DNA from: an archaeon
Lineage (GTDB): Archaea > Nanobdellota > Nanobdellia > Pacearchaeales > DTIR01
DNA length: 64,000 bases
Assembly (NCBI GenBank): GCA_043799715.1
Contig: JAZDNM010000005.1
Location: 4,859 to 68,858 of the forward strand
Direction: 5' to 3'
Below, piece by piece: positions 3 to 19,961 of the stretch. The notes beneath the pieces are model-generated. The model was not told the origin of the DNA. It saw nothing but the letters and a program-made list of their open reading frames with translations, and did not search any database. How positions within the stretch are numbered: position 1 is the stretch's first letter; each line of letters begins with the position of its first letter. The position numbers and the translations under genes were made by a program.

Positions 3-2198
3 TTGCTTATTCCATTCGGAGATTTCGCAAACAGAAATCATCCTCTTCTGCCGGCTGGCTATGTTGAGGAATACTGGTTTGCAGAACTTGAGGAAAAAAA
101 CAAGGAAGCAGCGGAAAAAATCAACTGCAGAAATGTAAGCCTGGCTGAGGCATTTGAGATAAGCAGAACTTATGGTATTGCGCTTCATCCATCTTACATT
201 TTTTATTGGTCGCAGATTACAAATGAAAATTTTTCTGATTTGCTGAAATTGCTTGAGAAATCAAGGGTTGAAGGGGGAAAAATTATTCTTCCAATGAATG
301 ATTCTGCAAAAAGGGCGCTTGAGATACTTGCTGTCCCTCATTTTTTAAGCATAGAGAATATTATAATTGAGCCGCCGCATGCAGCAAGCCTGCTGTCAAA
401 TCTTGGAATGGAAGATTTGGCTCTAAACAAAGAAAAGATCTCAGTGATGATATCTGAATCATTAAAGCCAGAGCAGAAGGTTCTGGATATAATAAACAAA
501 TTTTCCTCTTTTGTGATAAGGGATAAGGCAGGAACTTTTATAGGCGCAAGAATGGGCAGGCCTGAAAAGGCAAAGTTAAGGGAGTTGACAGGCTCCCCTC
601 ATGTGCTGTTTCCTGTAGGCGAAGCAGGAGGGAGATTAAGGAGTGTGCAGGAGGCGTCTGAAACAAGCGTCAAGGCTGATTTTCCCCTCTACCACTGCGA
701 CAATTGCAATTCAGAAACAATCTCCTTTGTGTGTGAGGTTTGCGGGAAACAAACAAGGAAAGTTTACTACTGCCGCAGCTGTGATCTAAAGCTTAATACT
801 GAATTCTGCCCTACGCACGGAGCAGCAGACGATTTCATGACGAGAAAACTGAACATAAAGCATCATCTGGAATATGCATTGAAAAAACTTAATATCCAGC
901 GCAGTGAACTGCCTGCTTTGATAAAAGGAGTCAGAGGTACATCCTCTGAATCCCATGTTCCTGAGGCAATTGCAAAAGGCGTCCTGAGGGCAATGTTCAA
1001 CCTTAATGTAAACAAGGACGGCACAATAAGGTATGATGCATCTGAAGCCCCTGTAACGCATTTCAAGCCAAAAGAAGCTCATGTCAGCGTCGGCAAGCTG
1101 AGGGAAATCGGGTACACCAAGGACATTTTAGGGAAAGAGTTGGAGAATGAAGAGCAAATTCTTGAAATTAAGCCTCATGATGTACTTCTGCCTTGCGCGC
1201 CAGACAGCCTTGATGAGAAAGCTGATGATGTTTTTATGAGGATATGCAAGTTTATTGACAATCTTCTTGTGAGGATGTATGGGATGAAGCCGTTCTACAA
1301 TATTGTGCACAAGGAGGATTTAGTCGGCAAGCTGACTGTGGGCATTGCTCCGCATAATTGTGCCGGGGTTATATGCCGAATTGCAGGATTCAGCAATACT
1401 CAATCTTTCCTTGCATCGCCTTACATCCATGCTGCAATGAGGAGAGATTGCGATGGGGATGAGGCATCATTAAGTCTGCTGCTTGATGTCCTTTTGAACT
1501 TCTCCCGGGATTATCTGCCTGCCCACAGAGGCGGAACACAGGATGCTCCGTTAGTCCTTAATGCAAGGATAAGACCTGGGGAGGTTGATGATATGATCTT
1601 TGACATTGACATAGCGGATAAAATTCCTATTGAGCTTTATAGGGCAGCTGAAAAGCGGCTTATGCCTAACAGTGTAAAAATGCCCCAGATAAGGGATAAA
1701 ATCGGCAGCGATGAAGCATTCCAGAACTTGCATTATACCCATGAGACTTCTGATATTGCTTCAGGAACAACATGCTCTGCTTACAAAAAACTTGCAACAA
1801 TGCAGGAAAAAGTCCAGAAGCAGATGGAGCTTGTTGAAAAAATCAGGGCTGTTGACACTTCTGATGTCGCGACTCTCATGATACAAAGGCATTTGATAAG
1901 GGACATAAGAGGCAACTTAAGAAAATTCTCAATGCAGCAGTTCAGATGTGTGAAATGCAACGAGAAATACAGGCGCCCTTCCTTGCAGGGAAACTGCACA
2001 AAATGTGGCGGAAGGATAATCTTTACAATCTCTGAAGGCGGCATAATAAAATATCTTGAGCCTGCGCTTCAGCTTGCCAAAAAATACAATGTGCCGGATT
2101 ACGTAAAGCAGTCTCTTGACTTGACACAGAGATATATAGAGAGCATGTTTGGAAAAGAAACAGAAAAGCAGGAAGCACTGCAGAAGTGGTTCGGATAA
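3..2198 (+). CDS. DNA polymerase II (PolD) large subunit DP2, C-terminal part. The gene is cut by the window start.
   Basis: The frame is open from base 3, and the tracker start is TTG rather than a real start. The protein is long, with clustered CxxC zinc-finger motifs (CDNCNSE..CEVCGK, CRSCD, CVKCNE..CTKCGG) and blocks such as GRPEKAK and MRRDCDGDE that are typical of archaeal DP2. Confidence 0.85.
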   Translation: MLIPFGDFANRNHPLLPAGYVEEYWFAELEEKNKEAAEKINCRNVSLAEAFEISRTYGIALHPSYIFYWSQITNENFSDLLKLLEKSRVEGGKIILPMNDSAKRALEILAVPHFLSIENIIIEPPHAASLLSNLGMEDLALNKEKISVMISESLKPEQKVLDIINKFSSFVIRDKAGTFIGARMGRPEKAKLRELTGSPHVLFPVGEAGGRLRSVQEASETSVKADFPLYHCDNCNSETISFVCEVCGKQTRKVYYCRSCDLKLNTEFCPTHGAADDFMTRKLNIKHHLEYALKKLNIQRSELPALIKGVRGTSSESHVPEAIAKGVLRAMFNLNVNKDGTIRYDASEAPVTHFKPKEAHVSVGKLREIGYTKDILGKELENEEQILEIKPHDVLLPCAPDSLDEKADDVFMRICKFIDNLLVRMYGMKPFYNIVHKEDLVGKLTVGIAPHNCAGVICRIAGFSNTQSFLASPYIHAAMRRDCDGDEASLSLLLDVLLNFSRDYLPAHRGGTQDAPLVLNARIRPGEVDDMIFDIDIADKIPIELYRAAEKRLMPNSVKMPQIRDKIGSDEAFQNLHYTHETSDIASGTTCSAYKKLATMQEKVQKQMELVEKIRAVDTSDVATLMIQRHLIRDIRGNLRKFSMQQFRCVKCNEKYRRPSLQGNCTKCGGRIIFTISEGGIIKYLEPALQLAKKYNVPDYVKQSLDLTQRYIESMFGKETEKQEALQKWFG

Positions 2199-2207
2199 TT
2201 TTATTGT

Positions 2208-3404
2208 TTAGAGAAAATACAGGATAACAGGCAGCATGATGCATCCCATCAAGTGCATTTTTCTCACATTCGCCTTTATTGCAAAAATTCCAAGTGAAGT
2301 GGCTGTTACAAGGATAATTATCCCAAGCCAGCCTGAAAAAATAATGCACATAACAAAAAGAAATAGCAGCAGCGCAATTGAAATTTTTGCATAATCAATC
2401 CGATTTATATTTTTCGCAAAAATTTTTGCCGCATGCAACGATATAACCAGGGCTATGCCCCCTGAAACAACTGCAACAGCAAGAAGCAGATACAATTGTT
2501 GCATGCTGACTGACTGGAGAATGTCTGCAGCTGCAATTGCAACACCGCTTCGCGGCTTTCCTATGGCATAAATTGCGACAAAATTTAATCCAGTGACAAG
2601 CGTGCTTATAATCCCCAGAAGAAAAAGAAAGCATTTCTCAGAGGTTTTGCCGCATATTTCAGAGCCAATTACAGCAGCCTGGCTTGCGCCAAGCCCTGGG
2701 AGAAAACTGCATAACCCTGAAGCAATGAGCCCTGCAGATACTGCCTTTGGAATTTCCCCTTTTTCTGTTCTTAATTCCTGCATTTCCTGCTTTGGAATTT
2801 TTGCCTTCTCAGATATGCTTGTTACAATCATGCTTGTCCCAAAAAGCCCGGTCAATAATGGGAATAACGGCTGGTTTAAATTCAAATTTAATGATGCGAA
2901 TCCCAAAACTCCTGAGATAATAAATATGAACAGTGCGAGAATTTTATTTTTCTCATTTACCATAAGATACAGGGATGATACGATAAGAATAACTGCCATA
3001 AACCTCTTTATGAAGTCATACACCAAAGGCATAATGTAAAGGAATAAAGGCGCAGTGAGAATAAGGATTATTAGTCCTGCATAACAGCCGATTAATGCAA
3101 GCCTTGCTGCTGCATATCCTTTTCCTTTCAAAAGCAGATTGTGCCCTGGCATGACAGAGAGGGCTGTCTCAGAGTTTGGCGCTGACAGGAAAATAGAAGG
3201 GATAAAATCAAAAAAAGAGTGTGTTACAGCCATCGCAATGATAAAAGAAGCAATTGCAATCGCGCTGAAATGCTCCAGCAGAATTCCTGCTGATGAGGAG
3301 ATTATCAGCGCGACAAAATTTATATGGATTCCAGGAACAAGGCCTGTGAAAATTCCTGCGATTATCCCAAGCATTAATGCCAGAACAACCAATACAAAAA
3401 TCAT
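2208..3404 (-). CDS. TctA/DUF112-family polytopic membrane protein
   Basis: 398 aa and highly hydrophobic. Repeated G-x-x-PG motifs (GLVPGIH, FLPGLGASQAAVIGS) are characteristic of TctA-like permeases. Its start overlaps the stop of the upstream OB-fold gene (ATGA). Confidence 0.55.
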   Translation of the reverse strand: MIFVLVVLALMLGIIAGIFTGLVPGIHINFVALIISSSAGILLEHFSAIAIASFIIAMAVTHSFFDFIPSIFLSAPNSETALSVMPGHNLLLKGKGYAAARLALIGCYAGLIILILTAPLFLYIMPLVYDFIKRFMAVILIVSSLYLMVNEKNKILALFIFIISGVLGFASLNLNLNQPLFPLLTGLFGTSMIVTSISEKAKIPKQEMQELRTEKGEIPKAVSAGLIASGLCSFLPGLGASQAAVIGSEICGKTSEKCFLFLLGIISTLVTGLNFVAIYAIGKPRSGVAIAAADILQSVSMQQLYLLLAVAVVSGGIALVISLHAAKIFAKNINRIDYAKISIALLLFLFVMCIIFSGWLGIIILVTATSLGIFAIKANVRKMHLMGCIMLPVILYFL

Positions 3405-16389: not shown

Positions 16390-16503
16390 GCGAAGACAGC
16401 TTTTAGGATTCCCCTCGTTAGAGAGTACCACCCAATACGCAAGCAGCTTAACTTCTCTGTTCTGACGGGAAGAGGTGTTTCCTGCCTGCTATGGCCGTCT
16501 TCA
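16390..16503 (-). rRNA. rrf: 5S rRNA (orphan, not linked to 16S or 23S in this window)
   Basis: The reverse complement reads GAAGACGGCCATAGCAGGCAGGAAACACCTCTTCCCGTCAGAACAGAGAAGTTAAGCTGCTTGCGTATTGGGTGGTACTCTCTAACGAGGGGAATCCTAAAAGCTGTCTTCGC. The terminal 9-bp helix I (GAAGACGGC/GCTGTCTTC) and the GGCCATAGC, GAAGTTAAGC and GTACT motifs are 5S hallmarks. Confidence 0.85.
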
Positions 16504-16767: not shown

Positions 16768-16928
16768 GCGGGAGTGCCGGAGCGGCCAAACGGGACAGCC
16801 TCAAGAGAGAGCTCTCTTCTTTCAAAAAGAAGAGACTTCGGAGAGAAGAAATCCTCGGCAAAGAAAAATGAAAATCTCAGAAAGCTGTTGGCTTAGTGCC
16901 TGCATAGGTTCGATTCCTATCTCCCGCA
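16768..16928 (+). tRNA. tRNA-Leu(CAA) with a 77-nt intron at the canonical 37/38 position (intron about 16806-16882)
   Basis: Perfect acceptor stem GCGGGAG/CTCCCGC. Anticodon stem ACAGC/GCTGT split by the intron, loop CTCAAG|A (CAA at 16802-16804). Long variable arm, T-arm ATAGG-TTCGATT-CCTAT. Confidence 0.88.
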
Positions 16929-16938
16929 TAAGCATAAA

Positions 16939-17463
16939 ATGAAAAGAAAAAAACCAGGAATTTCACAAGGCATCAAAATCCGGGCAAGAAGAAGCCTTAA
17001 CAGGCAGATGAGCACCAATGAGGAAACTTATGTAGTTGATACAAGCATTGCAGTAAACCAGTTTATCAGAAGACTTGTCAAGAAAGGCTTAAAGGGGAGG
17101 ATTATAATCCCCAATGCTGTAATGGCTGAACTTGAAAATCTTGCCAACAAGGGAAATGAAGCAGGATTTAAGGGGCTTGAGGAAATTTCAAGTTTGCATC
17201 AGCTTAAGAAACATTTCAAGTTTTCTGTTTATTTTGAAGGGTTGAGGCCAAACGAGCATCAGATCAAATTTGCAAAATCTGGCGAGATTGATGCATTGAT
17301 AAGGGAAATAGCAATCAAGAAGCATGCGACAATCATAACTGCTGATTTGGTTCAGGCTAAAACCTCACAAGCATACGGAATAAAGGTTCTTTTCCTTAAG
17401 TCAAGGCAGCCAGTGCAGCAGAAAAAGAAGGGATTTTCTTTTTTTAAGTTAAGGAAAAAATGA
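16939..17463 (+). CDS. PIN-domain protein (predicted RNase); the N-terminal start is uncertain
   Basis: YVVDTSIAVN... with acidic residues at spacing typical of a PIN domain (D..E..D: VVDTS, MAELENL, IITADLVQA). The alternative start MSTNEE is at 17008. Confidence 0.55.
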   Translation: MKRKKPGISQGIKIRARRSLNRQMSTNEETYVVDTSIAVNQFIRRLVKKGLKGRIIIPNAVMAELENLANKGNEAGFKGLEEISSLHQLKKHFKFSVYFEGLRPNEHQIKFAKSGEIDALIREIAIKKHATIITADLVQAKTSQAYGIKVLFLKSRQPVQQKKKGFSFFKLRKK

Positions 17464-17598
17464 AATCTTTCAAATGGAAAGAGGCAGAGAAAACCCTTAA
17501 ACAATTCAGGGAGATGATTGCATTAGTCAAGAATTACTGCCCTCTCAAATTAAGGATAGAAAAACAGGATTTTCCTTACGATATCCTAAAAATATAGA

Positions 17599-17608
17599 TT
17601 TTTATATC
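17599..17608 (+). promoter_or_regulatory. TATA box placed correctly for the tRNA 5' fragment
   Basis: TTTTTATATC is centred about 27 nt upstream of 17631. Confidence 0.45.
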
Positions 17609-17630
17609 TCTTTTTTGTATTGTTTTTTAT

Positions 17631-17656
17631 GCTCCCCTAGCTCAGCCTGGATAGAG
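17631..17656 (+). tRNA. Orphan tRNA 5' fragment: acceptor 5' strand, D-stem 5' strand, D-loop and 3 nt of the D-stem 3' strand. It is the proposed exon or half 1 of a split tRNA (Cys-like).
   Basis: GCTCCCC-TA-GCTC-AGCCTGGATA-GAG, after which the tRNA pattern stops. No anticodon arm or T-arm follows locally. Confidence 0.55.
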
Positions 17657-17660
17657 AAAA

Positions 17661-17670
17661 ATTTAAATAT
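17661..17670 (+). promoter_or_regulatory. TATA box for the LAGLIDADG gene
   Basis: ATTTAAATAT is centred about 26 nt upstream of the ATG at 17691, immediately after the tRNA fragment. Confidence 0.45.
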
Positions 17671-17690
17671 CCTAATCCGCGCTTCTTCTA

Positions 17691-18692
17691 ATGAGGATAT
17701 TATTATCAAAAGCTTCTAGAATAAGATTATTTGATTATCTAAAACAGGAATATAAGGCAGAAACATTAAGCCAGTTATCCACAAAGTTGGATATTTCTTC
17801 TTCGACATTAGACAAGTGGTTATATAACCCTGAGAGGTATATCCCCCTAAAATTTATACCATCAAATCTCAATTTGGAAATAATTGATGAAAAACCAGAT
17901 AACTGGGGGCAGATTAAAGGAGGGCAAGAAACTTATAAAGTATTAGTCCAAAAATATGGTATCAAGGAGATAAGGAAAAGACAATCCAAGGGGGGGATAA
18001 TCAGCTCATCAAAAAGAGATTTACGAGAAAAAGAAAGTTTCAAATTGGACATATTCCATCCCTTATTTCTAGAATTTTATGGAGCCCTACTCGGTGATGG
18101 ATGGTTAAGTTCCTTATCTTATAATTATAAGACCAAAAGAAGTTATTGGTGGGTGGGGCTGAGCGGCCATTCCGTATTGGACAAAGAATATCTAATGTTC
18201 TTAAAGGGGATAATTAAGAAACTATTCGGCAAAAATGCTCTTGTTAAGTATAAGCGGGATGCTAAGGGAATGGAAATTTTGTTTTGCCACAAACAATTAA
18301 TTCTATTTATGAATAAAGAATTAGAATTCCCTATAGGTAAAAAAATAAATCTGAGAATAAAAAATAGCCTTGCTAATGATTGGAATAAAATTAAGTATAT
18401 CCTAAAGGGAATTTTTGATACCGATGGTTCTTTTTATTTAGATAAAACTCCTTCTGGAAATCCTTACCCTATTATTACAATATCAATGAAATCGCCGTTT
18501 CTCTTGGCTCAGCTAAATAAACAACTTTTAGCTAATAACTTTAAGGTTAGATTTCGAGAATATGAATTAATTTTAAAAGGCAGCATACAAGTTACAAAAT
18601 GGATGAGAGAGATAGGCTCAAACAATCCCAAACATTTTTTAAAGTATCAATCATGGTTGGATCATAATGTCCCTGTGGCGCAACTTGGATAG
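17691..18692 (+). mobile_element. LAGLIDADG homing-endonuclease-like gene (two-motif, monomeric type) with an N-terminal HTH-like extension
   Basis: Motifs LEFYGALLGDGWLS and ILKGIFDTDGSFYLD lie about 100 aa apart. The N-terminal LSQLSTKLDISSSTLDKWL looks like an HTH. The last 8 codons and the stop codon lie inside the downstream tRNA. Confidence 0.8.
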
Positions 18693-18743
18693 CGCGGCAG
18701 CCCCCTAAGCTGTAGGTTGCAGGTTCAAATCCTGCCAGGGACG
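18669..18743 (+). tRNA. tRNA-Arg(CCU), complete and intron-less, with C rather than U at position 33
   Basis: Acceptor GTCCCTG/CAGGGAC, D-stem GCGC/GCGC, anticodon stem GCAGC/GCTGT, loop CCCCTAA (CCT at 18704-18706), T-arm GCAGG-TTCAAAT-CCTGC, discriminator G, then TTTT. Confidence 0.8.
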
Positions 18744-18752
18744 TTTTGATAT

Positions 18753-18800
18753 CTCTTGCTTGCAATGAGAGGGTCGGGGGTTCAAATCCTCCGGGGCGTT
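18753..18800 (+). tRNA. Orphan tRNA 3' fragment: D-stem closing C, anticodon arm, T-arm and acceptor 3' strand. It is the proposed exon or half 2 of the split tRNA, and the best register gives anticodon GCA (Cys).
   Basis: C-T-CTTGC-TTGCAAT-GAGAG-GGTC-GGGGG-TTCAAAT-CCTCC-GGGGCGT-T. The 3' acceptor strand pairs with GCTCCCC at 6 of 7 positions (G1-U72 wobble, U3-C70 mismatch). The U73 discriminator fits Cys. Confidence 0.5.
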
Positions 18801-18872
18801 TAGCAAATTTTTTAAATAGGGATTTATAGGGAACTAAGAGGTGTTCAGCCTCAGACTGCTTCTGAGATAAAA

Positions 18873-19439
18873 ATGTCAAAATTATTTTATGATATAACAC
18901 TGGACGCCATAAGAGCAACATACGGGATGCTCAAGCCATTGAATAAACTGAGCATAAAGGTAGAGGGAAAATTTCCAGAGGAGCCCAGCCTTCTGACTCT
19001 AAATCATTTCCATAAGATAAGATTCTGGTTTTTTGGCTGGCATAACAAATGGGCAGACCACCTTCTTACTGCGTATCTGCCGACAGACAAGATAGTTCAT
19101 TTTGCGGTCCAAGATAGGCAGTACATGAAGCCATTTACAAGATTTATTTTAGAAAGGCTCGAAACATTCCCAGCCAAGAGCGTAAGAAAAGGGATAAAGT
19201 ATGCGAGGAAAGGGGAAATGGTTGCGATATTTCCCCAGGGAGAAGCCCATAAACTTTACGAGAATAAATATTACAAAGGCGCTGCGTTTATGGCGCAGAG
19301 AGGCAACGTTGATATCACCCCCTTGAAAATATCCAGCAAAGGAAATGAATTAATAATAAACATACTGCCAAAAATTGCTTCAAAAGGCAAGACACTTGAG
19401 CAGCTGACACAGGAGATAGAAGAGGTTTATTCTGAATAA
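18873..19439 (+). CDS. Putative lysophospholipid/glycerolipid acyltransferase (PlsC-like), weakly supported
   Basis: LTLNHFHK... and IFPQGEA resemble LPLAT blocks I and III, but the Asp of the canonical HxxxxD motif is not evident. Confidence 0.35.
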   Translation: MSKLFYDITLDAIRATYGMLKPLNKLSIKVEGKFPEEPSLLTLNHFHKIRFWFFGWHNKWADHLLTAYLPTDKIVHFAVQDRQYMKPFTRFILERLETFPAKSVRKGIKYARKGEMVAIFPQGEAHKLYENKYYKGAAFMAQRGNVDITPLKISSKGNELIINILPKIASKGKTLEQLTQEIEEVYSE

Positions 19440-19564: not shown

Positions 19565-19696
19565 TGGGGCTGCCCAGATTTGAACTGGGGTCGCATGCTT
19601 TTCAGTTTACAAGTTTCTCTTTGCCAAGGATTTCTCTTTTCTAAAGAGAAATGCTTTCCCTAAGCACGAAGGCTAACCAGACTATCCCACAGCCCC
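19565..19696 (-). tRNA. tRNA-Pro with a 58-nt intron at 37/38 (intron about 19600-19657). The anticodon reads AGG in the canonical register.
   Basis: Minus strand: GGGGCTG-TG-GGAT-AGTCTGGTTA-GCCT-T-CGTGC-TTAGGG|intron|A-GCATG-CGAC-CCCAG-TTCAAAT-CTGGG-CAGCCCC-A. G37 and the overall sequence resemble archaeal tRNA-Pro. Confidence 0.8.
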
Positions 19697-19701
19697 GTAA
19701 A

Positions 19702-19871
19702 TGCGCCGGCTGGGACTCGAACCCAGATAATCAGCTATCTTTTGAGGAATTTCTTCCCGAAGCTTCTTTTCCGCGAAAAGCTATGCTTTTCGGGGCATAG
19801 GAAATCTCAGATTTCCTCTGTTAAAGAAGGCTCTTGGAAGGCTGAAGTCTTAGCCATTGGACCACCGGCGC
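19702..19871 (-). tRNA. tRNA-Gly(UCC) with a 98-nt intron at 37/38 (intron about 19737-19834)
   Basis: Minus strand: GCGCCGG-TG-GTCC-AATGGCTA-AGAC-T-TCAGC-CTTCCA|intron|A-GCTGA-TTAT-CTGGG-TTCGAGT-CCCAG-CCGGCGC-A. Only 5 nt separate it from tRNA-Pro. Confidence 0.85.
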
Positions 19872-19961
19872 ATATAAACCCCCAACGGGCTTGATTTAGA
19901 TATCCTCATTCTGGCTTAAAAACTTTTCCGCAAAAACCTAAAGGTTTCATCTGTTAAAAAG

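Follow-up and report, generated by a model that had tools for sequence, protein, structure and literature searches.

The 64,000 nt stretch analysed here (the window; contig JAZDNM010000005.1) comes from a DPANN archaeon of the Pacearchaeota/Woesearchaeota group and contains a tRNA-Arg(CCU) gene that, judged from uninterrupted alleles in related genomes, is broken exactly between tRNA positions 25 and 26. The two remnants of this gene are separated by a cassette that holds a putative promoter, an open reading frame (ORF) for a LAGLIDADG homing endonuclease and a second, complete tRNA-Arg(CCU) gene, here called the nested tRNA. A first-pass annotation of this DNA had listed a 5′ tRNA piece, a TATA box, the ORF, the tRNA-Arg(CCU), a TTTT run and a 3′ tRNA piece, and every one of these was found when nt 17400–19000 were read. 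Its statement that the insert carries a LAGLIDADG gene with its own (predicted) promoter and a complete tRNA-Arg(CCU) was likewise borne out by the ORF, the fold and the results of Rfam and ARAGORN.

The 5′ piece (17631–17656, 26 nt) reads GCTCCCC TA GCTC AGCCTGGATA GAG and is identical at 24 of 26 positions to the corresponding piece of L001, a sister genome whose locus also carries the cassette. The 3′ remnant includes the T-arm GGGGG-TTCAAAT-CCTCC, followed by the acceptor 3′ strand, and ends at 18800. Both remnants are colinear with the intact tRNA genes of three loci that lack the cassette (L065, L067 and L069), and the native TATA box upstream aligns with the TATA boxes of the uninterrupted orthologues of L065 and L067. 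The two pieces exist as first described, but orthology moves their bounds: the 5′ remnant extends to 17657 (an A in place of C25), and the 3′ remnant starts from A26 at 18751, not at 18753. The C at 18753, previously taken for the missing base of the D-stem, is by orthology position 28 of the anticodon stem, and the variable loop is GGGTC, which is 5 nt rather than 4 nt long.

The left end of the cassette (AAAATTTAAATA) resembles an archaeal transcription factor B recognition element (BRE) followed by a TATA box. It directly abuts the 5′ remnant, contains the TATA-like sequence TTTAAATA (17662–17669) and matches L001 at 14 of 14 positions; it would serve as the promoter of the endonuclease gene. 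The final 24 nt of the ORF, including the stop codon (the TAG of the D-loop), lie inside the nested tRNA gene. A further TATA-like sequence within the ORF, TTTTTTAAAGTAT, has words that recur in L001, L002 and L007 and might, more speculatively, act as an internal promoter of the nested tRNA. A T-run or short spacer also follows the nested tRNA in relatives. The cassette has only 33 nt ahead of the ORF and 7 nt beyond the nested tRNA that belong to neither. The nested tRNA is presumably the functional replacement for the native tRNA-Arg(CCU), and is probably the only one of the two to be expressed and functional, because its cloverleaf is intact (62 bits) and the remnants have decayed.

Table 1. 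Features of the interrupted tRNA-Arg(CCU) locus and neighbouring elements, in window coordinates
Feature	Position (nt)	Strand	Basis or remark
Native archaeal-type TATA box of the original tRNA-Arg(CCU) gene, TTTTTATATC	17601–17610	+	Read from sequence; 21–30 nt upstream of the 5′ remnant
5′ remnant, native tRNA-Arg(CCU) positions 1–25	17631–17657	+	Acceptor 5′ strand and D-arm, C25>A
Whole cassette, 1,093 nt, missing from empty-site alleles	17658–18750	+	Comparison with L065, L067 and L069
Cassette left end, purine-rich BRE-like run and TATA, AAAATTTAAATA	17658–17669	+	Putative endonuclease promoter
LAGLIDADG homing-endonuclease gene, 333 amino acids	17691–18692	+	ORF, Pfam, AlphaFold2, Foldseek
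TATA-like TTTTTTAAAGTAT within the ORF, centre ~28 nt before the nested tRNA	18635–18647	+	Read from sequence
Nested intact tRNA-Arg(CCU)	18669–18743	+	Rfam tRNA, 62.1 bits; ARAGORN
Cassette right end, TTTT (18744–18747) and GAT	18744–18750	+	Read from sequence; archaeal terminator-like
3′ remnant, native tRNA-Arg(CCU) positions 26–73	18751–18800	+	Colinear with L067, L069 and L065
Lone 5S rRNA gene	16391–16502	−	Rfam, 68.8 bits
tRNA-Leu(CAA), 77 nt anticodon-loop intron, free of cassette	16768–16928	+	Intron-allowing ARAGORN
Hairpin-like element CAGCCTCAGACTGCTTCTGAG, arms CTCAGA/TCTGAG	~18846–18868		Just upstream of the acyltransferase-like gene
Doubtful 'tRNA-Phe(AAA)', 58 nt intron	19565–19696	−	ARAGORN
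tRNA-Gly(UCC), 98 nt intron	19701–19872	−	Intron-allowing ARAGORN

Empty sites, remnant orthology and decay

Alleles without the cassette came to light in a search for homologues of the neighbouring PIN-domain gene, immediately upstream of the locus; the contigs of four of these were fetched. The PIN-domain proteins of L065, L067 and L069 share 72–78% amino acid identity with that of the window. In all three, a gap of ~240 nt after the PIN gene holds one uninterrupted tRNA-Arg(CCU), called by ARAGORN and scored by Rfam at 61.3, 51.0 and 46.4 bits, respectively. Downstream of the gap, L065 and L069 carry an acyltransferase-like gene homologous to that of the window, followed in L069 by SecF. 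A tblastn search found no homologue of the window endonuclease in the L065, L067 and L069 loci. The tRNA gene of L067 reads GCTCCTC TA GCTC AGTTTGGATA GAGC A CCTCA CTCCTAA TGAGG GGGTC GGGGG TTCAAAT CCTCC GGGGAGC G. In L069 and L065 the anticodon stem is TCTCA/TGAGA, and the loop is interrupted by an ordinary intron, 14 or 52 nt long.

When aligned with MAFFT, window nt 17598–17656 and 18751–18875 are colinear with the empty alleles, from the upstream TATA box into the downstream promoter region. The same precise site, between the same flanking genes, is occupied in the window and in L001 and empty in L065, L067 and L069. Identity of the joined remnants is 81% to the tRNA genes of L067 and L069, against only 53% to the nested tRNA of the same locus, which in turn shares 76–88% identity with the nested tRNAs of other cassettes and 63–68% with the native orthologues. 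These empty-site alleles and the identity matrix put the interruption exactly at the 25/26 boundary and identify the nested tRNA as foreign and cassette-borne. The earlier reading that the two pieces are halves of one tRNA gene, interrupted at 25/26, is upheld by the relatives without the insert, in which they form a single uninterrupted gene at the syntenic site; as judged from these alignments, the match of the remnants to a tRNA gene is far beyond chance. The opposite arrangement, in which the nested tRNA would be native and the pieces a decayed tandem duplicate, is rejected on the evidence of the empty-site alleles and the identity matrix.

The insertions of the window and L001 are common by descent, with amino acid identities of 89% for the PIN protein, 63% for the acyltransferase and 80% for the endonuclease. 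A recent horizontal transfer between the two was considered and rejected, given that the flanking proteins (63–89%) bracket the endonuclease in their identity. The nested tRNAs of the two loci are identical at 75 of 75 positions.

Compared with the intact orthologues, the remnants of the window carry the changes C25>A, A31>T, A70>C, C72>T and G73>T. The anticodon loop CTCCTAA has been replaced by the 9 nt sequence TGCTTGCAA (18757–18765), with loss of the CCU anticodon, and pairs 10:25, 31:39 and 3:70 are broken. At the position of the C25>A change, L007, L019 and L062 keep GAGC before AAAATTT. The loop of L001 is CTTATGA, and its acceptor stem has one more mismatch than that of the window. 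The first-pass annotation had assigned the broken gene to tRNA-Cys, on a 7 nt loop TTGCAAT with the anticodon GCA, a U73 discriminator and an acceptor stem paired at 6 of 7 positions. The intact orthologues are tRNA-Arg(CCU), and the loop is in fact the decayed 9 nt sequence. Since they are changes relative to these orthologues, the apparent GCA anticodon, the U73 and the imperfect acceptor helix are, on this comparison, products of decay and not marks of Cys identity.

Neither remnant is called in place by ARAGORN, nor by Rfam at E ≤ 10. When the remnants were joined in silico (144 joins per locus), ARAGORN accepted window constructs as Ala(UGC) in 54 cases and Cys(GCA) in 12, depending on the junction; L001 joins were called Ile or His, and those of other loci were given arbitrary identities. 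ARAGORN is too permissive for such calls to count as evidence. The joined window sequence has no G3:U70 pair as for Ala, and has U73 where the orthologues have G73.

A brute-force search for bulge-helix-bulge motifs in 10 loci, covering ±10 nt around the 5′ junction and 42 positions for the 3′ one, found none that was conserved and none that would leave a cloverleaf; it used the canonical geometry and may have overlooked unusual relaxed forms. The best candidates in the window are without an outer intron helix and give a product without a D-stem. No Rfam intron family was matched by the insert as a group I ribozyme core, either at the gathering score or at E ≤ 10. A group I intron was rejected on the lack of a covariance model match and of room for a ribozyme. 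Described archaeal group I introns are all in rRNA genes (PMC6125680).

No extended complementarity of the kind expected of split-tRNA leaders and trailers was found at the two pieces, and the 3′ piece has no promoter of its own. As only 7 nt separate it from the nested tRNA, there is no room for a leader helix. Direct repeats resembling attachment (att) sites were not found flanking the insert, beyond generic T-arm similarity. A 24 nt similarity between the native promoter and the right junction (17599–17622 and 18744–18767, 79%) is weaker in L001 and was treated as chance. An integrase-type element was rejected, as the LAGLIDADG gene is the sole ORF in the insert and flanking direct repeats were not found. 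A working split or intron-containing tRNA is, on these sequence comparisons, not supported in this window. Three possibilities had been left standing by the first-pass annotation; the evidence favours a disrupted pseudogene, and neither cis-splicing nor trans-joining is supported for the window.

The locus is part of a block (RNA polymerase subunit N, 5S rRNA, tRNA-Leu, PIN gene, tRNA-Arg) that is conserved in the window, L001, L065, L067 and L069; the 5S rRNA gene in this block is a lone one. The hairpin-like element CAGCCTCAGACTGCTTCTGAG downstream of the locus is kept in L001, L065, L067 and L069 despite diverged intergenic surroundings, and may be part of a 5′ untranslated region or a regulatory element.

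The endonuclease and its cassettes in other genomes

The protein gives only a weak match to Pfam LAGLIDADG_3 (E 9e-4; 19.9 bits against a gathering score of 22.5). No NCBIfam family matched it, and the sole match in a sequence search of the PDB was a weak one to I-DmoI (E 0.17). Because these PDB and NCBIfam sequence searches gave almost nothing, a fold search was needed. An AlphaFold2 model built from a 27-sequence alignment had a mean predicted local distance difference test (pLDDT) score of 91. Foldseek found 131 PDB matches to it at E ≤ 1e-3, and all those listed were LAGLIDADG enzymes or maturases, the best being the archaeal intron-encoded I-Tsp061I (E 1e-9; template modelling score 0.74, target-normalised). 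The two LAGLIDADG motifs read ...YGALLGDGW... and ...GIFDTDGSF..., and their acidic ends (G135-D136-G137 and D243-T244-D245-G246) are invariant in the alignment. About 120 N-terminal residues form an extra helical domain that lies outside the structural matches and precedes the two-motif core. By its motifs and the modelled pseudo-dimeric alpha-beta-beta-alpha-beta-beta-alpha fold, the protein is classed as a single-chain, two-motif LAGLIDADG homing endonuclease, with predicted DNA cleavage activity.

More than 200 homologues of ~330 amino acids are present in the database, and their hosts, where the source names them, are Pacearchaeota, Woesearchaeota or Nanoarchaeota (DPANN). The element is found widely among DPANN archaea. 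A carrier of viral or plasmid origin was considered and set aside, since contigs of IMG/VR gave only partial matches of 25–28%, with no close relatives.

A scan of one genome per species yielded 61 loci encoding relatives of the endonuclease. About 40 of the 61 show the same order of tRNA 5′ piece, TATA box, ORF and tRNA-Arg(CCU), followed in some by a 3′ remnant. One and the same left junction is seen in ~40 loci, where the 5′ piece ends in ...GGATAGAG(C) or ...GGG, and most endonuclease-carrying loci have a TATA-like element ~32 nt upstream of this piece. In 26 of 42 loci, the distance from the start of the cassette TATA to the ATG is exactly 29 nt (30–32 nt in several more), and the 29 nt spacing predicts an endonuclease mRNA with little or no leader. 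In 31 of the 42 the ORF lacks a stop codon of its own; it runs into the tRNA for 10–49 nt (80 nt in one locus) and terminates there. These stops (TAG or TAA) are drawn from conserved tRNA sequence, namely GTAG at positions 7–10, the GGATAG of the D-loop or the CCTAA of the anticodon loop. The ORF is intact in most of ~44 loci, and the local order tRNA-Leu, cassette, tRNA-Gly is conserved in many.

A 3′ piece is present in only ~12 loci, and ~30 are without any. In L007, L022, L029, L004 and L018 it follows the nested tRNA immediately, starting at ...TCCTAA or close to it; it consists of T-arm and acceptor only in L015, is decayed in L062 and is reduced to traces in L002 and L014. Among loci with a 3′ piece, both strands of the anticodon stem are kept only in L019, the window and L001, and native positions 26–32 are missing in several. 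The anticodon loops that survive in 3′ pieces read CCU, which identifies the interrupted gene as tRNA-Arg(CCU). Essential segments have been lost from 8 of the 10 loci that keep both pieces. In L019, all exonic parts of the interrupted gene are intact, and there is a second intron of ~170 nt in the T-loop.

Insertions in the T-loop of the 3′ remnant were seen in L007 (~50 nt) as well as L019 (~170 nt), and in both the T-stem and acceptor resume after the insertion and match the 5′ remnant at 7 of 7 positions; L014 keeps the distal part only. L010 (~1880–2030) has the endonuclease gene, then a decayed nested tRNA (loop CTTCTTAA, mismatched acceptor) and then an intact native-type tRNA-Arg(CCU).

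Both remnants are retained in 10 loci, and their 5′ and 3′ acceptor strands are paired in 95.7% of the cells compared. Five of the seven acceptor pairs have changed on both sides (pair 3:70, for example, is U-A, G-C, A-U or C-G), and none of 500 shuffles reached the observed values of covariation. As such compensated differences are not expected from decay after a single ancient insertion, they point to repeated invasion of lineage-specific native genes that would have been functional at the time. The endonuclease gene is also a mosaic. Third-codon-position identity between the window and L001 rises from 0.52 (17976–18290) to 0.92 (18291–18668), and the high-identity tract runs on through the nested tRNA and stops near the end of the 3′ remnant. 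This pattern shows recombination within the cassette. It agrees with repeated invasion, as do the cassette-free alleles of close relatives and the homologous cassettes on other tRNA genes described next.

Cassettes of the same design occur on other tRNA genes. L065, which is empty at tRNA-Arg, carries a 255-codon LAGLIDADG gene (2248–3015) whose product is homologous to the core of the window endonuclease (hhalign probability 98.7%) and is without the N-terminal domain. This gene overlaps a tRNA-Leu(CAA) (3006–3089) by 10 nt, and is preceded by a tRNA-Leu 5′ piece (GCGAGGGCGCCGAATGGC) and a TATA box, so that nt 2108–3089 repeat the layout on another tRNA. The tRNA-Leu(CAA) of the window has no cassette. 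By this comparison, L065 and the window carry sister cassettes on different tRNA genes, with reciprocal presence and absence. More distant homologues (24–39% identity) also adjoin tRNA genes, and those of L045, L046, L050 and L055 overlap tRNA-Arg(GCG).

Several further observations concern these tRNA neighbourhoods. L050 has a 5′ piece as well, and both L050 and L055 have a 3′ T-arm/acceptor remnant; the homologues of L047, L048, L051 and L053 terminate within an opposite-strand tRNA. In L063 (1234–2163), a second LAGLIDADG gene adjoins another tRNA directly downstream of the Arg cassette. The tRNA-Leu(CAA) of the window, missed by default ARAGORN and at the Rfam gathering score and seen only when introns were allowed, is syntenic with tRNA-Leu(CAA) of L069 and L070. 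The window's tRNA-Gly(UCC) is syntenic with a minus-strand tRNA-Gly of L069, and the doubtful 'tRNA-Phe(AAA)' next to it may be a disrupted or misread tRNA.

Interpretation of the locus

The locus is probably best explained by a homing-endonuclease cassette that destroys its tRNA-Arg(CCU) target and supplies a replacement for it, a reading in which we have good confidence. In tRNA-Arg(CCU) genes that lack the cassette, the endonuclease would cut close to where the D-stem meets the anticodon stem, and repair of the break would copy promoter, ORF and spare tRNA into the gene. Insertion would destroy the native gene, with no RNA splicing needed, and decoding of AGG would be kept through the replacement tRNA of the cassette. 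The replacement is presumably not cut itself, because it differs from the target around the insertion point, with GATAGCGC followed by GGCAGCC in place of GATAGAGC followed by ATCTCAC. The native halves would then be left free to decay, as seen in the window.

A very different possibility is that the pieces still form one working gene, with a giant archaeal intron of 1.1 kb or with halves joined in trans, giving a tRNA for Cys, Ala or Arg. The native promoter is retained upstream of the 5′ piece, the acceptor strands covary across loci, ARAGORN accepts the in-silico joins and DPANN splicing endonucleases with an L3 loop have been linked to many disrupted tRNA genes (PMC5829648). Against this, the remnants of the window have lost the CCU anticodon and three base pairs and have a loop of 9 nt, and the 'anticodon' of L001 differs although the nested tRNA is identical. 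An Ala identity would be without G3:U70, and the G73 of the orthologues is replaced. A cloverleaf-yielding bulge-helix-bulge was found in none of the 10 loci, a leader helix is impossible in the 7 nt available, and the essential segments or the whole 3′ piece are missing from most carriers (8 of 10 two-piece loci and ~30 loci, respectively). A working gene of this kind is thus very improbable. L019, with all of its exonic parts intact and its second T-loop intron, is the locus that fits such a gene best, and it is the best candidate for a more limited proposal, itself quite unlikely, that some carriers still express the interrupted tRNA-Arg(CCU) through relaxed-specificity DPANN splicing or joining of halves. 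If that were true, the insert of ~1.1 kb would be by far the largest tRNA intron known, and one with an endonuclease gene and a nested tRNA, and the loci would be present-day intermediates in the evolution of split tRNA genes.

Several points weigh against the explanation by a target-destroying cassette with a spare tRNA. The activity and target of the endonuclease, the immunity of the nested tRNA, its co-transcription and processing, and spread by homing are things that we infer. The inventory of tRNA-Arg(CCU) genes covers the 64 kb window only. The window and L001 share their insertion by descent, which means that they give no direct sign of recent transfer into the lineage, and L010, with its intact native-type gene and decayed nested copy, is a reverse outcome of redundancy that goes beyond a simple insertion model. 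Where the 3′ remnant is absent, many loci have a 5′ remnant that could base-pair to the 3′ strand of the nested tRNA, which suggests a second mode of insertion by an element bringing only tRNA positions 1–25. The 5′ remnant and the upstream TATA, kept in nearly all carrier loci, survive far more often than the 3′ remnant; and when the window is compared with L001, identity in the 5′ remnant (24/26) and in the T-arm block (26/26) exceeds that of the adjacent intergenic DNA (~70%). This conservation hints at some constraint or at gene conversion. The same observations, and the position of the 5′ remnant against the BRE/TATA of the cassette, would fit a variant in which the insertion took place as described and the remnants still have a role: the 5′ remnant, with its native promoter, in the transcription of the cassette or its control, the two remnants as homology arms for homing, or the remnants as a tRNA-like processing scaffold. 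However, the identity of the 3′ block is explicable by the recombination tract (18291–18800), acceptor pairing is being lost in the window and still more in L001, the 5′ remnant shows progressive decay in more distant loci, and each invasion would refresh the homing arms with no need for host selection, so that active remnants are unlikely. Intact ORFs and frequent synteny could be explained by prolonged maintenance through vertical descent, or by domestication, no less than by homing that still continues. A domesticated, vertically inherited endonuclease tied to the tRNA-Arg(CCU) locus of this clade, for instance as a factor that acts on the locus or its transcript, with remnants left by one or a few ancient events, would agree with the invariant catalytic residues, with the tRNA-Leu upstream and tRNA-Gly downstream in many loci, with the common ancestry of the window and L001 insertions and with the lack of close relatives on viral contigs. 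It does not sit easily with cassette-free alleles in close relatives that have the same gene order, with homologous cassettes that are reciprocally present and absent on other tRNAs, or with the mosaic structure of the cassette between close relatives; and the lineage-specific, compensated acceptor stems would require several independent insertions into functional genes. Domestication therefore also seems an unlikely account, and a cassette that kills the native gene and replaces it is preferred over all of these.

Comparison with known systems

The closest documented analogues of the cassette are the mobile ORFs (mORFs) of fungal mitochondria, found in atp6 of Allomyces macrogynus and in atp6, atp9, cox2 and nad3 of Glomus (PMC3630166). 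In both cases a free-standing endonuclease ORF (LAGLIDADG or GIY-YIG in the mORFs) sits in a host gene without an intron or intein, and brings along a foreign copy of the displaced gene part that keeps the gene working. The native part stays adjacent as an unexpressed or decaying duplicate, and is nearer to the gene of relatives than the inserted copy is. The window differs in that the host gene is a tRNA gene on an archaeal chromosome, served by an archaeal BRE/TATA promoter. It also carries a whole replacement gene, which leaves native remnants on both the 5′ and 3′ sides, and this replacement follows the ORF and contains the ORF's stop codon. With its foreign insert and native duplicate, the cassette can be described as a mobile ORF with a replacement copy, one in which the inserted copy would be the only one expressed. 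A full-text literature search found no description of LAGLIDADG replacement cassettes in tRNA genes or in archaea, an absence that is no proof of novelty; the design is apparently not yet described for archaeal tRNA genes. It would represent a homing endonuclease that spreads in stable-RNA genes without an intron, by killing its target and bringing a presumably cut-resistant spare.

The LAGLIDADG enzymes of archaeal rRNA introns, I-Tsp061I and I-DmoI, have the same fold, are also archaeal and are also encoded inside a stable-RNA gene. Their introns are removed by the tRNA-splicing endonuclease at a bulge-helix-bulge, a motif not found in the window, where the interrupted gene is probably dead and a second copy would function in its place. 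The extra N-terminal domain of ~120 residues is a further difference. The wider family of cassettes, on tRNA-Arg(GCG), tRNA-Leu(CAA) and others, may represent natural enzymes that are each specific for a conserved tRNA gene sequence.

SegB of phage T4 is a free-standing GIY-YIG endonuclease encoded between genes in the tRNA region of the phage, and is an example of 'intronless homing'. Like the cassette, it is an endonuclease gene in a tRNA gene region that favours the inheritance of itself and of linked tRNA genes; the enzyme of the window, in contrast, is a LAGLIDADG protein whose cassette splits a tRNA gene and leaves the halves behind. SegB and tRNA are mentioned in PMC13096335.

Fragments of tRNA genes next to mobile elements have been described in other archaea. 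At the tRNA-Thr locus of Caldiarchaeum, a mobile element separates a 5′ fragment from a complete tRNA of the same identity 1–2 kb downstream (PMC3293823), and integration-derived tRNA fragments in Thermococcaceae mislead tRNA annotation (PMC9897764). Those elements have recombinases or integrases and att-type duplications, whereas the window has a LAGLIDADG gene only and no att-like repeat, and its complete tRNA is of foreign origin and not a restored native gene. DPANN genomes are rich in disrupted tRNA genes, and their tRNA sets are incompletely predicted (PMC5829648). The cassette explains one class of DPANN tRNA gene fragments, which can mislead annotation and counts of 'missing' tRNAs.

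The locus also recalls the split and tri-split tRNAs of Nanoarchaeum equitans and Caldivirga maquilingensis, and multi-intron tRNAs, in that the halves lie apart and the 5′ half has a promoter. The window's host belongs to the DPANN archaea, a group with splicing enzymes of relaxed specificity (PMC5829648). In true split tRNAs, leaders and trailers are complementary and form the splicing motif, and the anticodon and cloverleaf are conserved; the remnants of the window have neither. The locus therefore looks like a possible starting point for split tRNA genes and not like a member of that group. Taken across genomes, the loci are snapshots of a tRNA gene breaking into a promoter-bearing 5′ half and a 3′ half, and bear on the origins of split and multi-intron tRNAs.

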